DNA of 63,612 nt from Alphaproteobacteria bacterium (GTDB lineage Bacteria > Pseudomonadota > Alphaproteobacteria > CAAGCB01 > CAG-977), in contig JBJFAY010000098.1 of NCBI GenBank assembly GCA_051888155.1, positions 1 through 63,612 on the forward strand, read 5' to 3'. The translations under genes and the position numbers were made by a program. The notes below the pieces were generated by a model. It saw only the letters and a program-made list of their open reading frames with translations, ran no database searches and was not told the origin of the DNA. Every line of letters begins with the position of its first letter. The first letter of the stretch is position 1. Positions 10,608-17,476 of this stretch are shown in pieces.

Positions 10608-10683
10608 TGGCGACCCCAGGGGGATTCGAACCCCCGTTACCGCCGTGAAAGGGCGATGTCCTAGGCCTCTAGACGATGGGGTC
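10608..10683 (-). tRNA. tRNA-Glu (anticodon UUC)
   Basis: The minus strand reads GACCCCATCGTCTAGAGGCCTAGGACATCGCCCTTTCACGGCGGTAACGGGGGTTCGAATCCCCCTGGGGTCGCCA. It has a 7-bp acceptor stem, anticodon loop CUUUCAC, T-loop GGTTCGAATCC and an encoded CCA. Confidence 0.95.
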
Positions 10684-12571: not shown

Positions 12572-12961
12572 TTATTCCAATGTGACGCTGTCCAGACTTC
12601 CCGGTTCTTCCCCCAATAAAATCGCTAAATTTTTCAGATATCTCAATCCGTTGTATTTTCTGTATTCTTCAATAGAGGCTTCTTTTTTAGCCGCCTCAAC
12701 GGCTTCATCAGCTTTGGGCAGCATCATGGGCAGAAAAGTAACAGCCCCGCTGACCGGTTCGCGCTGGATTTCCAGCCAGCCGTTTGTCAAAGAAAATAAA
12801 TATGTCGCAATAGAAGACGGTTCTTTTACGATTTTTACTTTTAACCCGGAAAAATTATGCCGCAAAAGCATTTCATGAGGTTCTACATACTGCGTTGTAA
12901 AAATGCCGCGCACGTCAGTATCTAAAAAATCATTAATCATAATTACGGGCAATTCGGGCAT
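12572..12961 (-). CDS. Hypothetical protein
   Basis: Start at MPELPVIM is preceded by AAAGGAGGAAAAAA. I recognised no family. Confidence 0.5.
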   Translation of the reverse strand: MPELPVIMINDFLDTDVRGIFTTQYVEPHEMLLRHNFSGLKVKIVKEPSSIATYLFSLTNGWLEIQREPVSGAVTFLPMMLPKADEAVEAAKKEASIEEYRKYNGLRYLKNLAILLGEEPGSLDSVTLE

Positions 12962-12974
12962 TTTTTCCTCCTTT

Positions 12975-13166
12975 TTAAAAACGGATTCCATTATACGAAA
13001 AACAGGAAAAAAAACAAAATAAAAGCTCCGGATATTGTTTACCGAAGCTTTTTCTGTATTTTTCCCGGCGGGAATATATTTTTTTGTTTTTTATTACTCT
13101 TTTTTTGTATTTTCCGGAACAAAGCAGTTCATACGCGACCGGATCTCTCTTTTTCTTTGGTTTCAT
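12975..13166 (-). CDS. ArfA-like alternative ribosome-rescue factor (candidate)
   Basis: MKPKKKRDPVAYELLCSGKYKKRVIKNKKIYSRREKYRK... resembles the ArfA core (..A.E.LL...F+.[12 protein letters not shown].RK). It has a hydrophobic C-terminal tail, an AAGGAA ribosome-binding site and an in-ORF terminator. Confidence 0.5.
   Translation of the reverse strand: MKPKKKRDPVAYELLCSGKYKKRVIKNKKIYSRREKYRKSFGKQYPELLFCFFSCFSYNGIRF
12999..13052 (-). terminator. Intrinsic terminator located inside the ArfA-like ORF
   Basis: 11-bp stem (13021-13031 pairs with 13042-13052) with a 10-nt loop. It is fully paired on the minus-strand RNA (one G-U) but has a C-A mismatch on the plus strand. A U-rich tract follows on the minus strand (13020 down to about 12999). 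Confidence 0.6.
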
Positions 13167-13296
13167 CAAACATTCCTTTCTTTTCACAAACACATAAAAA
13201 TATTGAACAAATTAAATAAAGAGTCAACATCTTGCGCAAGAAAACGATTTACTCTTCGTTTAAGGAGTATATCCACTGCAAAACCGGAGGAAAACC

Positions 13297-14256
13297 ATGA
13301 ACAAAAAGACGGGAGAAATCTTATTTCTTTTAAGTATAGCTTCATTTTTTTGTATGGGCATTACCGTTTCAAACGCCACGCCGAAAACGCACAAATTCAG
13401 CACGACCATTGAAAAAGAACGCCCGCAGTTAAACGAAGAAACCAGACGCCTGATCGCGGCTTACCGTGAAAATCCGACAGAAGAAAACCGCGCCGCATTA
13501 AGAAAACAGGTTGAGAAGAACTATGACAATGTCATAGCCCGCAAAACAGCCAAGCTGGAAGAATTAAAACAAACGGCTCGGCACAAATCCAAGATCCTTG
13601 AAATGCAGGAAATTGTTGATGAAGTTATCCGGGACAAAGAAAACCGCATTGAACAAAGTATGCGCCGTTTTACCGATCCGCGTTTGCGCCCCGGCGTGCG
13701 TCAGGCCAAAGACGGATATCTGCCCGTTTTGGGTGCGGCGCAAGATGTTGAAATTGCCAACACGCCGGTAACAAAAGAGGAATACGCCGTTTTTTTAAAA
13801 CAAACCGGCAAACCTGAACAACCGTTTTCCGAATATGAAGCCAAATACCCCGTCACAAACATTTCCTATCATGACGCTGCCGCATACGCCCGATGGCTTT
13901 CCGAACAAGATGAAAGAACAACCTATCGCCTGCCGACCGAAAAAGAATGGGAATTAGCCGCCGGCCATATGCCCAAAGACGCAGATTTTAATAACGGTAT
14001 TCAAATGACGACAAGCGCCGTAGACGCTTATAAAGACACTTTATCGGCCAGCGGCGCGATTGACATGTGGGGGAACTGTTGGGAATGGACGTCAACGTCC
14101 AGAAACGACGCTGGTAAAGCGGTCAAAGGCGGATCTTTTGATTCGCCGCGCATGAAATGCCGCACGGAAGAACGCGAAGAAAGCCGCGATCCGGCCAAAG
14201 GATATAACAACGTTTGCTTTCGCCTGATTCGGGAAAGACAAAATCAGCCTTTTTAA
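13297..14256 (+). CDS. Secreted formylglycine-generating-enzyme (SUMF1/FGE) domain protein
   Basis: Signal peptide and coiled-coil N-terminal half. The C-terminal half has YPVTNISYHDAAAYARWLS, WEWT, GGSF and CFRL blocks. Confidence 0.7.
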   Translation: MNKKTGEILFLLSIASFFCMGITVSNATPKTHKFSTTIEKERPQLNEETRRLIAAYRENPTEENRAALRKQVEKNYDNVIARKTAKLEELKQTARHKSKILEMQEIVDEVIRDKENRIEQSMRRFTDPRLRPGVRQAKDGYLPVLGAAQDVEIANTPVTKEEYAVFLKQTGKPEQPFSEYEAKYPVTNISYHDAAAYARWLSEQDERTTYRLPTEKEWELAAGHMPKDADFNNGIQMTTSAVDAYKDTLSASGAIDMWGNCWEWTSTSRNDAGKAVKGGSFDSPRMKCRTEEREESRDPAKGYNNVCFRLIRERQNQPF

Positions 14257-14272
14257 TTTAAGGAGAAAAATT

Positions 14273-14599
14273 ATGAAAAAACTATTCATTTTTGCCTTAC
14301 TGGGATTATTGACCGCCGGATTCAATTCCCCTGCGCTTGCCGAAGAAAACAGCACAACAGAAACCACTGCAGAACAAAGAGACGGGCTAAAGGAAGGGTT
14401 AAAAGAAGGACATAAAAAAGCCCCGGACGATATGAAAGAAGGAATGAAAGACGGCCTGAAATACGGATTAAAAGACGGATTAAAGGAAGGATTGAAAGAC
14501 GGCGACAAAAAGAACGCCGCGGCTTCTAAACCCGTCCGAAAGAAAAAATTAAAGCAAGGACTGAAAAACAGCCATAAAAATATTGAATCCGCAGAATAA
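14273..14599 (+). CDS. Small secreted protein built from (K/E)(D/E)GL(K) repeats
   Basis: Signal peptide, then KEGLKEGHKK...MKEGMKDGLKYGLKDGLKEGLKDG. AGGAGA ribosome-binding site. Confidence 0.6.
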   Translation: MKKLFIFALLGLLTAGFNSPALAEENSTTETTAEQRDGLKEGLKEGHKKAPDDMKEGMKDGLKYGLKDGLKEGLKDGDKKNAAASKPVRKKKLKQGLKNSHKNIESAE

Positions 14600-14684
14600 C
14601 CGATATCATCAAAGCTCCCTTGCTCGCTTTTTTAACGACATGGGGGCTTTTTTGTATTTCATTTATTTCCTTATTAAAACAAAA

Positions 14685-14710
14685 GCCTCCGGCGGTTTTC
14701 CGCCGGAGAC
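14685..14710. terminator. Bidirectional intrinsic terminator between the repeat-protein gene and ppdK
   Basis: CTCCGGCGG-TTTT-CCGCCGGAG hairpin with T-rich runs on both strands. Confidence 0.6.
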
Positions 14711-14732
14711 TTATTCTTTGCCTTTCCTGTTC

Positions 14733-14797
14733 GGAGAACGTCCCGTCCCTACGGCGAGTAGCCCCGCCGGAAGGGCGTTGTCCCCGCACGGGGAGTG
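14733..14797 (-). repeat. GC-rich mini-hairpin repeat cluster (REP-like) starting immediately after the ppdK stop codon
   Basis: The minus strand reads TAG|CACTCCCCGTGCGGGGACAACGCCCTTCCGGCGGGGCTACTCGCCGTAGGGACGGGACGTT. The same unit types occur at 49433-49530. Confidence 0.7.
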
Positions 14798-17476
14798 CTA
14801 GGCGTTGCGTACAGCCGCCTGAGCCGCAGCCAGACGCGCGATAGGCACGCGGAACGGCGAGCAGGAAACGTACGTCAAACCGACGCGGTGGCAGAAATCA
14901 ATCGTTGCCGGATCGCCGCCGTGTTCGCCACAAATGCCCAGTTTGATGTTCGGGCGGGTCTTACGGCCTTTTTCAACAGCCATCTGAACCAGCTGGCCGA
15001 CGCCTTCTTCATCAATGGATTTGAACGGATCCTTGGCGAAAATGCCTTTGGCAACGTAATTCGGCAGGAAAGATCCTGCGTCGTCACGGCTCATACCCAA
15101 TGTCGTCTGCGTCAGGTCGTTCGTTCCGAAGCTGAAGAATTCGGCCGTTTCGGCGACTTTATCAGCTGTCAGAGCGGCACGCGGCATTTCAATCATGGTA
15201 CCAACCATATAATTGAACTTCACACCGGCCTTTTCCATGACTTCTTCCGCTTTCTTCACGATGATCGCTTTCATCATGTCGAGTTCTTTCTTCGTGTCGA
15301 TCAGCGGAACCATGACTTCGGGTTCAACCTGTTTGCCCAATTCCTTGGAAGCTTCGACGGCGGCTTCAAAAATAGCCTGCGCCTGCATTTCCGTAATTTC
15401 AGGATAGGTCAATCCCAGACGGCAGCCGCGCAGCCCCAGCATCGGGTTGGCTTCATGCAGCTGGTGGACGCGCGCCTGAACGGCTTCCAAAGAAATCCCC
15501 AGTTCTTTTGCGATTTCACGCTGTTCCGGTTCTTTCGTCGGCAGGAATTCGTGCAAAGGCGGATCCAACAGACGAATCGTAACGGGAAGACCTTCCAAAG
15601 CCAAGAACAATCCTTTGAAGTCTTCGCGCTGATACGGCAGCAGCTTCGCCAAAGCGGCGCGGCGTGCTTCTTCGTTTTCAGCCAGAATCATTTCACGCAT
15701 GTGCTTAATGCGCATCGGATCAAAGAACATGTGTTCCGTACGGCACAAGCCGATTCCTTCGGCGCCGAATTTACGGGCGACCTGCGCGTCATGCGGCGTA
15801 TCGGCGTTCGTGCGGACTTTCAGCTTGCGGACTTCATCGGCCCAGCCCATGAACACACCGAAATCGCCGGTCAGTTCGGCGTCTTTCAAAGCAACGGCGC
15901 CATTGATAACTTCACCGGTCGTGCCGTCCAGCGTAATAACGTCGCCTTCTTTGATTTCAACGCCTTTGATATTCATCTTCTTGGCCGCGTAATCGACTTT
16001 AACGTCGGAAGCGCCGCAGACAGCCGGCGTTCCCATACCGCGGGCGACAACGGCCGCGTGAGACGTCATACCGCCGCGCGCCGTCAAAATACCCTGAGAA
16101 GAGTGCATGCCGTGAATGTCTTCCGGAGACGTTTCAACACGAACCAGAACGACTTTCTTGCCTTCTTCGGCCCATTTTTCGGCGTCATCGGCCGAAAAAA
16201 CAACCTGACCGACGGCGGCGCCCGGAGAAGCGTTCAAAGCCTGCGTCAACAGACGGCCTTCTTTAATCGCGTCTTTCTTGGCTTTCGGATCCAAAGTCGG
16301 GTGCAGCAGATCGTCCAACTGCTTCGGTTCAACACGCATCAAAGCGGTTTTCTTGTCGATCAAGCCTTCGTTGACCATATCGACCGCCATTTTCACGGCG
16401 GCAGCGGCCGTACGTTTGCCGTTACGGGTCTGTAACATGTACAGTTTGCCGTTCTGAATGGTAAATTCCATATCCTGCATATCACGGTAATGCTTTTCCA
16501 GCGTTTCGCGGATATCGCACAACTGCTTATACAGTTCCGGCATTGCTTCTTCCATGCAAGGCAGATCGGAACCGCGTTCCTTTTTGCCTTCTTTGGAAAT
16601 CTGCTGCGGCGTGCGGATACCGGCCACGACGTCTTCACCCTGAGCCTTGATCAAAAATTCGCCGTAGAAAGCGTTTTTACCCGTGGACGGGTCGCGCGAG
16701 AAGCATACGCCCGTCGCGGAATCATCACCGGCATTACCGAATACCATTGTCTGAACGTTAACGGCCGTACCCCAGTCTTCGGGAATATCGTTCAATTTAC
16801 GATAATAAATAGCGCGGTCGACCATCCAACTCATAAACACGGCGCCGATACCGCCCCATAACTGTTCATTGGGATCCTGCGGAACGGGTTTGCCGAATTT
16901 TTCGCCGATTTTTTTGTATTCGGCAATCAGTTCTTTCAAATCGTCAACCATCATATCGGTATCGGATTTGTATCCTTTTTTGTCTTTCAAAGCTGTCAGG
17001 GCATGTTCAAAGTTTTCATGTTTTACACCCATCACAACGTCGGAATACATCTGAATGAAACGGCGGTAGGAGTCATAAGCGAAACGTTCGTCGCCGGACG
17101 CTTTGGCCAGACCTTTTACCGTTTCGTCCGTCAACCCCAGGTTCAGAACGGTGTCCATCATGCCCGGCATGGAAATACGAGCGCCGGAACGGACGGAAAA
17201 CAGCAGCGGATCATTCGGATCTGCAAACTTTTTGCCAACGATCGCTTCACAATGCGCGACGCCTTCTTTGACCTGTTCGGCCAGATCGGCGGGGAATGTT
17301 TTGCCGTTAGCGTAATAATATGTGCAGACTTCGGTGGAAATCGTGAAGCCGGGAGGAACGGGAATTCCGATCGAGCTCATTTCCGCCAGGTTAGCACCTT
17401 TGCCGCCCAACAAGTTTTTGTCGGAAGCTTTACCTTCGGCTTTTCCGTTGCCGAATTTATAAACCCATTTTGTCAT
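14798..17476 (-). CDS. ppdK: Pyruvate, phosphate dikinase
   Basis: 892 aa, collinear with PPDK (MTKWVY.FG...GGKGANLAEM, GGMTSHAAVVARG, CGEHGGDP). Confidence 0.95.
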   Translation of the reverse strand: MTKWVYKFGNGKAEGKASDKNLLGGKGANLAEMSSIGIPVPPGFTISTEVCTYYYANGKTFPADLAEQVKEGVAHCEAIVGKKFADPNDPLLFSVRSGARISMPGMMDTVLNLGLTDETVKGLAKASGDERFAYDSYRRFIQMYSDVVMGVKHENFEHALTALKDKKGYKSDTDMMVDDLKELIAEYKKIGEKFGKPVPQDPNEQLWGGIGAVFMSWMVDRAIYYRKLNDIPEDWGTAVNVQTMVFGNAGDDSATGVCFSRDPSTGKNAFYGEFLIKAQGEDVVAGIRTPQQISKEGKKERGSDLPCMEEAMPELYKQLCDIRETLEKHYRDMQDMEFTIQNGKLYMLQTRNGKRTAAAAVKMAVDMVNEGLIDKKTALMRVEPKQLDDLLHPTLDPKAKKDAIKEGRLLTQALNASPGAAVGQVVFSADDAEKWAEEGKKVVLVRVETSPEDIHGMHSSQGILTARGGMTSHAAVVARGMGTPAVCGASDVKVDYAAKKMNIKGVEIKEGDVITLDGTTGEVINGAVALKDAELTGDFGVFMGWADEVRKLKVRTNADTPHDAQVARKFGAEGIGLCRTEHMFFDPMRIKHMREMILAENEEARRAALAKLLPYQREDFKGLFLALEGLPVTIRLLDPPLHEFLPTKEPEQREIAKELGISLEAVQARVHQLHEANPMLGLRGCRLGLTYPEITEMQAQAIFEAAVEASKELGKQVEPEVMVPLIDTKKELDMMKAIIVKKAEEVMEKAGVKFNYMVGTMIEMPRAALTADKVAETAEFFSFGTNDLTQTTLGMSRDDAGSFLPNYVAKGIFAKDPFKSIDEEGVGQLVQMAVEKGRKTRPNIKLGICGEHGGDPATIDFCHRVGLTYVSCSPFRVPIARLAAAQAAVRNA

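Follow-up and report, generated by a model that had tools for sequence, protein, structure and literature searches.

A putative ArfA-superfamily peptide with a conserved in-frame terminator in uncultured Alphaproteobacteria

In a 63,612-nucleotide (nt) contig assigned to an alphaproteobacterium (GenBank assembly GCA_051888155.1, contig JBJFAY010000098.1; the whole of this stretch is referred to here as the window) we analysed a small minus-strand gene at positions 13166 to 12975, which an earlier note, made from the sequence alone, had likened to the ribosome-rescue gene arfA. The gene is an open reading frame (ORF) under coding constraint that contains a hairpin and U-tract in frame, conserved across ten lineages. 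Conservation is lost immediately after this terminator, and the conserved part resembles the functional core of ArfA. We suggest that the peptide is best described as a divergent, unannotated member of the ArfA superfamily and not, strictly speaking, as an ArfA. On balance, we consider it probable that it acts by an ArfA-type ribosome rescue mechanism with a non-stop design, in which expression from mRNA without any stop codon senses the activity of transfer-messenger RNA (tmRNA).

A reading frame with a conserved internal terminator

The features of the gene are listed below with the evidence for each.

12975..13166, minus strand: full ORF, 63 codons, with its TAA stop at 12977-12975 (translation)
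13020..13166, minus strand: conserved coding part, codons 1-49, MKPKKKRDPVAYELLCSGKYKKRVIKNKKIYSRREKYRKSFGKQYPELL (conservation among homologs, codon-position pattern, alignment to ArfA residues 16-49)
13042..13052, minus strand: 5' arm of the hairpin, AAAAGCUUCGG (pairing, folding and covariation)
13032..13041, minus strand: hairpin loop, 10 nt (sequence and folding)
13021..13031, minus strand: 3' arm of the hairpin, CCGGAGCUUUU (pairing, folding and covariation)
13007..13020, minus strand: U-tract AUUUUGUUUUUUUU (sequence), with transcript 3' ends predicted at about 13018-13007
12978..13019, minus strand: read-through tail, codons 50-63, FCFFSCFSYNGIRF, hydrophobic and unconserved (tails differ wholly among lineages)
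13174..13178, minus strand: Shine-Dalgarno sequence AAGGA, 7 nt 5' of the ATG (read from the sequence)
13199..13227, minus strand: candidate sigma-70-like promoter with -35 TTGACT (13227-13222), a 17-nt spacer and -10 AATATT (13204-13199) (consensus scan, 9/12 matches)

The 63-codon ORF translates exactly to the peptide quoted in the earlier note, which had also described the tail, correctly, as hydrophobic. Codons 1-49 correspond approximately to the peptide predicted from a terminated, stop-less mRNA. Relatives of the ORF carry AAGGA or GGAG at the same place upstream of the start, and a TTGACT...ATAT block is kept in the close relatives L001, L011 and L012, where, as in the window, it may serve as a promoter. 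An upstream GTG start at 13193, which would give a protein of 72 aa, was rejected as it is not conserved and all homologs begin MK.KKKR.

In the minus-strand RNA the stem (13052-13042 / 13031-13021) comprises 11 bp with one G.U pair (U13045-G13028), whereas the plus strand has a C-A mismatch at this pair. The hairpin spans codons 39-49 and, together with the U-tract, codons 39-53, so that both elements lie at least 30 nt upstream of the stop codon, which follows codon 63. The description of the hairpin in the earlier note, including the mismatch and the codons involved, was correct throughout, as was its placing of a U-rich run (AUUUUGUUUUUUUU, 13020-13007) inside the ORF before the stop. On the minus strand the hairpin folds with a minimum free energy of -14.7 kcal/mol (z -3.7), and none of 200 dinucleotide shuffles was equally stable; folding of the plus strand is weaker (-10.0 kcal/mol). 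A generic terminator scan did not report the hairpin because it permits only loops of 3-8 nt, and the loop here is 10 nt long. Processing by RNase III is unlikely to be the main route to a non-stop mRNA, because an 11-bp stem is short for this enzyme and a U-tract follows it.

Ten lineages have independent downstream sequence: the window, L014, L009/L015, L010, L016, L017, L018, L019, L020 and L021. Similarity between the peptides holds to about residue 48 in all ten and then ends at both the protein and the DNA level. The hairpin and U-tract are found at the same codons, directly after the KHKK motif, in 10/10 lineages, with the U-tract 3' of the hairpin in each despite differing sequence. 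Paired variants of the stem include GCUUCGG/CCGGAGC, GCUCCGA/UCGGAGC, GCUCCAU/AUGGAGC, GGCUUCGA/UCGGAGCC, UGCUCCGA/UCGGAGCA and CCUCGAA/UUCGAGG, and in L017 a wholly different stem (AAAACCUCGAA/UUCGAGGUUUU) occupies the same place. In the nine ungapped sequences pairing holds for 98% of cells, and both sides have changed in 4 of the 11 pairs; the covariation score is 0.348 against 0.152 +/- 0.028 in shuffles. When the 3' partners were slid by 1-3 columns as a control, pairing was 24-65% and the covariation score a third or less. The proposal of a terminator inside the ORF is thus borne out by its conservation with covariation, and by the end of peptide conservation at this point.

No lineage (0/10) has an in-frame stop before the U-tract. 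The downstream stops are scattered in unrelated sequence, from directly after the U-tract in L019 to roughly 145 codons beyond it in L017, where the ORF runs antisense into a convergent gene, and the resulting ORFs have 50, 63, 64, 68, 70, 76, approximately 86, 95, 127 and 195 codons. Within the coding part, differences by codon position 1/2/3 number 241/134/383, and codon changes comprise 243 synonymous versus 274 nonsynonymous, a pattern that indicates purifying selection on the peptide up to the hairpin in the ten lineages. Since coding is maintained, the in-frame terminator is maintained and there is no stop at the conserved end, the gene is most simply read as one meant for expression from stop-less mRNA. 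A distant relative (P0008, 50 aa; L019:742-894) has a UAA directly after the terminator U-tract (GGAGCCUUUUUUGUAA). The presence of this stop in the transcript depends on the exact point of release, so the locus may represent an intermediate between stop-containing and non-stop designs.

Similarity to ArfA and to a wider set of small peptides

Profile comparison of the alphaproteobacterial clade (9 sequences) with 80 enterobacterial ArfA sequences, using hhalign, gave a probability of 79% (P 1.5e-5) over 31 columns with 35% identity, corresponding to ArfA residues 16-49. Because the peptides are lysine-rich we used column shuffles as a control: the score of 27.3 compares with 9.2 +/- 1.9 (maximum 15.9) for 300 such shuffles (z approximately 9.4), and the reversed clade alignment scores 14.6 against ArfA. 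With the clade profile as query, hmmsearch was run exhaustively over 1.8 billion representative proteins and returned 82 at E<1e-3; 81 of these are peptides of 35-98 aa with the common motif RNPiA.eL..gKY.qRvVKsKK.YsRK.KHK. Among the 82, 14 match the Pfam ArfA family (PF03889), 44 match DUF7230, and for one relative (P0030) the name given by JGI is 'stalled ribosome alternative rescue factor ArfA'. When a profile of the whole set was run against every PDB chain (E<=10), only E. coli ArfA was found (E 5e-6). A two-step chain gives the same connection: the clade aligns to 44 members that score <10 bits with the ArfA hidden Markov model (HMM) at a hhalign P of 1e-22, and those 44 members align to ArfA at a P of 4.6e-6 (shuffles 6.75 +/- 1.64). 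All of the profile alignments agree with that made by eye in the earlier note, whose claim of ArfA-likeness is upheld by the hhalign comparison, the PDB profile search and the set of 82 as a significant, composition-controlled similarity. Taken as sequence evidence, these results give statistical support to remote homology with ArfA at the superfamily level. The one larger match, P0021 (278 aa), contains five tandem repeats, each with IYSRKEKYLK, and is hit by the clade profile in its C-terminal half (E 7e-7). This protein is probably not a relative and matches through its composition or its repeats.

The similarity coincides with residues of known function. ArfA has a short helix (residues 15-24) at the decoding centre, its F25 touches RF2 through hydrophobic contacts, and Q27-E30 recruit RF2 by adding a beta-strand to the domain II/IV sheet of that factor; the basic C-terminal part occupies the empty mRNA channel with its KH motif in a pocket, and the KH motif binds the mRNA-channel pocket in both ArfA and BrfA (PMC8012679). 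The alignment runs from residue 11 of the window peptide and residue 16 of ArfA, AYELLCSGKYKKRVIKNKK---IYSRREKYRKSF, and places Y-K-K-R-V-I of the window against F25-R-Q-R-V-E of ArfA. Positions that are invariant or nearly so in the clade are Y20 (aligned with F25), R23 in [QK]-R-[VI]-x (with Q27-E30), K28, K29, Y31 (with Y39), R33 (with R41) and K36-H37 (with K44-H45). Y20 and R23 are invariant, the clade consensus being Y-x-Q-R-V-V. The aromatic residue and a probable RF2-recruiting strand are therefore both recognisable in the window peptide, and the other motifs of the clade that align with ArfA are KNKK and Y-x-R-x-x-KH, the last with K-Y for K-H in the window copy. A product ending in the U-tract is predicted to have about 49-52 residues, with 12-15 after the KH position compared with about 10 in active E. 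coli ArfA. ArfA of 40 residues shows no activity, and the part that is ordered on the ribosome amounts to 46-48 residues (PMC8012679).

The window peptide itself does not match DUF7230 (PF23876; threshold 27 bits), and its nearest relatives score 11-16 bits. Its clade nevertheless appears to be related to this family without being a member by the model, as judged from the P of 1e-22 against the DUF7230-rich remainder of the set. The 44 members not recognised by the ArfA HMM were chosen independently of the Pfam result, and DUF7230, which is described as of 'unknown function', is probably related to ArfA as a family. When the literature was searched for DUF7230, no paper mentioning it was found.

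Some of the wider relatives are encoded in phage-like gene arrays. Those at L022:2501-2653, L023:2276-2395 and L024:2501-2632 lie among genes for DNA polymerase A, the large subunit of ribonucleotide reductase, GIY-YIG and Lar proteins and runs of tiny ORFs; many relatives in such arrays are 39-50 aa long and end at ordinary stop codons. By tblastn, genes of this kind, annotated as hypothetical, were found in the Sinorhizobium phages phiM12, phiM7, phiM19 and phiN3 and in Roseobacter phage CRP-13 (records MW514247.1, KF381361.1, KR052480.1, KR052481.1 and KR052482.1), and gp30 of pelagiphage HTVC027P is annotated with an ArfA domain (PMC12753301). The DUF7230 and phage peptides share the core motif given above with the window clade. 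In contrast to that clade, which is chromosomal, has the non-stop design and is not found in viral contigs, the three phage-type members examined (L022-L024) end at ordinary stops within phage gene arrays and have no in-ORF terminator. A scan of viral contigs, together with tblastn of a phage collection using the clade peptide, yielded no member of the clade. As they end at ordinary stops the phage-type members would escape tmRNA control, and phages of Alphaproteobacteria may thus carry constitutive ArfA-like peptides.

As a tentative suggestion, for which the case is still somewhat short of even, ArfA could form a single branch within a much larger superfamily, made up of peptides of 40-60 aa that recruit release factors, with DUF7230 and unclassified clades from several bacterial classes and phages among its members. 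Its cellular members would be non-stop, tmRNA-sensing peptides, and those of phages (of Sinorhizobium, Roseobacter and SAR11) would have ordinary stops. If this is true, ArfA is not a late, narrow invention of the beta- and gammaproteobacteria, and the phage members with ordinary stops could provide constitutive rescue activity during infection.

Proposed mechanism, alternatives and genomic setting

We infer the following scheme from the sequence. The gene would be transcribed from its own promoter, and RNA polymerase would halt at the in-frame terminator (hairpin 13052-13021, U-tract 13020-13007). As termination falls inside the ORF, most transcripts would lack a stop codon, and ribosomes would stall at the mRNA 3' end carrying a peptide some 49-52 residues long. 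As long as trans-translation (tmRNA-SmpB) functions, this peptide would be tagged and degraded; when trans-translation is saturated or lost, untagged peptide would build up. Its basic C-terminal half (KNKK...Y.R..K[H/Y]RK) would then bind ribosomes with an empty mRNA channel, and a class-I release factor, probably RF2, would be recruited through Y20 and K22-R23-V24-I25 to hydrolyse the peptidyl-tRNA and free the nascent chain. Rare read-through would add the tail FCFFSCFSYNGIRF, which is probably a destabilising or degradation mark, as reported for E. coli ArfA (PMC3989581).

Several observations weigh against this proposal. The PF03889 profile search suggested in the earlier note gave the opposite of what was expected, as the window peptide falls below the Pfam ArfA gathering score (25.5 bits) and has no match at E<=10. 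Neither does it match an ArfA model in NCBIfam at E<=10, and the Pfam and NCBIfam scans returned only noise (EF-G_D2 and prfC, E approximately 0.2-0.3). ArfA was not found in PDB searches by phmmer with the peptide or by hmmsearch with a five-sequence clade profile. BLASTP against E. coli ArfA (this ArfA sequence being checked against PDB entry 5H5U) gave no alignment, probably because of the low-complexity filter, and with filters off an enterobacterial ArfA HMM gives the window copy only 5.1 bits. As these direct tests fail, the case for homology depends on transitive and profile-profile evidence, and the peptide concerned is short and lysine-rich. At the residue level, K36-H37 is present in 7/8 of the alphaproteobacterial-clade lineages compared, but the window copy has K36-Y37 (codon 37, 13058-13056, is UAC, Tyr), and it has K22 where most lineages have Q. 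The C-terminal tail around this position is strongly basic. The GKG of the ArfA KGKGS loop is missing in every alignment, leaving a 3-residue gap after which KNKK is followed by I-Y-S. The 10-nt loop and A-U-rich lower stem suggest that the efficiency of the terminator may perhaps be moderate. In addition, none of tmRNA, smpB, arfB and prfB lies within the window, where tmRNA and Rfam scans detected tRNA-Glu only and a six-frame search for the release-factor GGQ and SmpB motifs found nothing credible. Most Alphaproteobacteria possess arfB, and its loss from a genome would account for the keeping of an ArfA-type backup. We have filed the peptide as a divergent superfamily member because it is below the Pfam thresholds for both ArfA and DUF7230 and lacks the GKG of the KGKGS loop.

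Part of this evidence could also be accommodated if the gene encoded a non-stop-regulated basic peptide that is ArfA-like by convergence or distant ancestry but has another role, for example as a ribosome-binding or hibernation factor or a regulator. That curated ArfA models do not recognise the window peptide, that the KGKGS loop is missing and that the N-terminus (MKPKKKRDP) is unlike that of ArfA are all compatible with such a role, and BrfA illustrates that independent origins are possible both for the KH motif and for the non-stop design (PMC6881298, PMC8012679). However, the similarity centres on the RF2-recruiting residues (the aromatic and the QRV strand) and the tail that binds the channel, composition-matched shuffles fall far below it, and intermediate sequences link the peptide to proteins annotated as ArfA. 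We therefore regard another role as unlikely, and rescue of the ArfA type as the better account.

It is improbable that the gene encodes an ordinary small protein that is read to its annotated stop, with the hairpin acting as a leaky or bidirectional terminator overlapping the 3' end. In several lineages the hairpin does lie between convergent genes, with A-runs on one side and U-runs on the other, and could serve both; moreover, a 10-nt loop is not ideal for a strong terminator. A normal gene, on the other hand, would keep a stop at its conserved end, and 0 lineages do so. In each lineage the peptide ceases to be conserved at the hairpin, the ORFs, of 50-195 codons, have tails that bear no relation to one another, and some ORFs run antisense into other genes. 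As a separate observation, in L014 (6161-7753, minus strand; MAG UMGS1296, a metagenome-assembled genome) a convergent gene for a 530-aa membrane protein is inserted directly after the U-tract. Because this gene overlaps the read-through part of the small ORF, the hairpin probably serves as terminator for the two convergent genes alike.

In the window and its closest relatives a gene for a 129-aa protein (12961..12572, minus strand) follows on the same strand, starting 13 nt past the stop of the small ORF and about 45 nt past the U-tract. Such an arrangement would be expected if the small ORF were a leader peptide with a transcription attenuator for the 129-aa gene. This seems very improbable, and we rejected it because the synteny is broken in other lineages: in L014 and L016, 1.7-2.1 kb of other genes separate the small gene from the 129-aa gene, which keeps its own upstream TATAAT segment, and in L009/L015, L010, L017 and L021 the next gene is convergent. 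Furthermore, purifying selection acts on the peptide, which is part of a protein family, and no alternative anti-terminator pairing was seen. Finally, a spurious ORF over a small non-coding RNA or a mere intergenic terminator, as might be suspected of a short, lysine-rich, A-rich frame with no curated family match, is scarcely credible given the coding-type codon-position pattern, the conserved start codon and Shine-Dalgarno sequence, the stops in the other two forward frames, the family of 82 clusters at the protein level and an Rfam scan with no match at the locus.

Relatives are found only in MAGs of uncultured gut and rumen Alphaproteobacteria and in unlabelled metagenome contigs. A word-indexed search gave four close homolog clusters, none of which carries a name, and a scan of one genome per species gave five loci, all in gut or rumen MAGs labelled Alphaproteobacteria or Rhodospirillaceae. 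The assignment to the Alphaproteobacteria is based on the labels of these five MAGs, which come from independent projects. The context that the earlier note had called unusual for arfA is therefore supported at five of the five genome loci, and a 2024 survey of 15,259 genomes recorded arfA in 0 of 2,376 alphaproteobacterial genomes (PMC11633108).

The chromosomal order is glyS, PPDK, a variable segment, the small gene, the 129-aa gene, a YibQ-like deacetylase, LexA and tRNA-Glu. The 129-aa gene (12572-12961, minus strand) has no Pfam or NCBIfam match, is 78-94% identical in related MAG loci and always adjoins the YibQ-like deacetylase and LexA genes; a perfect TATAAT (at 12995-12990 in the window) is found in its upstream segment of about 55 nt, as is a strong Shine-Dalgarno sequence, AAGGAGG. 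The segment between PPDK and the small gene differs between loci (window 13297-14798 compared with L001:3171-3871). The window and L011-L014 have a lipoprotein with an FGE-sulfatase domain in this segment, and the window also encodes there a 108-aa secreted protein with GLKEGLKDG repeats (14273-14599), whereas L001-L008 have an HTH_3 regulator and a SHOCT-domain protein instead. Beyond LexA and tRNA-Glu (window approximately 10608-10683) differing mobile-element genes are present (L001:7332-8087, L002:6381-8003), including those for Mom-like, serine recombinase and helix-turn-helix proteins, which suggests an integration hot spot beside the tRNA-Glu gene.

Comparison with known rescue systems

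Rescue peptides that depend on a release factor are regarded as having arisen late and in particular lineages, and as escaping sequence searches; peptides of the ArfA type are unstructured off the ribosome. If the function proposed here is correct, the known range of ArfA-type backup rescue would be widened to uncultured gut and rumen Alphaproteobacteria with its self-limiting non-stop regulation kept, and the uncharacterised DUF7230 and phage-borne peptides would be tied to ribosome rescue. What is new is the host class and the link to DUF7230 and the phage-borne peptides; an intrinsic terminator within the ORF was already known from brfA, and premature termination from arfA of E. coli. Searching, as a practical rule, for small basic ORFs that cease to be conserved at a terminator in frame could reveal more backup rescue factors, which matter for antibiotics aimed at trans-translation.

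In regulatory design the window gene resembles brfA of Bacillus subtilis (yqkK), which has a rho-independent terminator in its coding region, gives rise to non-stop mRNA and undergoes repression by trans-translation; BrfA is a backup, RF2-dependent rescue factor with a KH motif in its basic C-terminal tail (PMC6881298), and its structure has been deposited as 6SZS (PMC8012679). The in-ORF intrinsic terminator and, by prediction, the expression from non-stop mRNA are common to both genes, but the hosts are a Bacillus and members of the Alphaproteobacteria. Our family profile matched ArfA chains only, and not BrfA, among all PDB chains (E<=10), and for this reason we relate the peptide to ArfA rather than to BrfA. 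For ArfA and BrfA alike, compatibility between species is low. ArfT of Francisella tularensis is described as a member of a different, repeat-containing family (PMC6514570). It is likewise a small, basic, release-factor-dependent rescue peptide, but it works with either RF1 or RF2 and has no reported non-stop design. We have set it apart on the basis of its description.

The closest comparison is with E. coli ArfA itself (YhdL; PF03889; PDB 5H5U, 5MDV and 5U4I), a family whose range has been given as a subset of the beta- and gammaproteobacteria (PMC8012679, PMC6881298). The two peptides are alike in being small and basic and in having a stem-loop inside the ORF before the stop, with expression, in the window gene by prediction, from stop-less mRNA. 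Premature termination at the stem-loop has been observed for E. coli arfA. Both have an unconserved, hydrophobic read-through tail, the predicted active length of the window peptide (about 50 aa) is close to that of ArfA (about 55 aa), and the aligned elements comprise LL, F/Y, QRV, KNKK and Y-x-R-x-x-KH. In contrast, the window peptide has a shorter, more basic N-terminus and, at GKG, a gap of 3 residues, and K-Y replaces K-H. The longer, imperfect stem of E. coli arfA is cut by RNase III, whereas the window gene has a short canonical terminator of 11 bp with a U-tract, and it is found in an alphaproteobacterium and not in a beta- or gammaproteobacterium.

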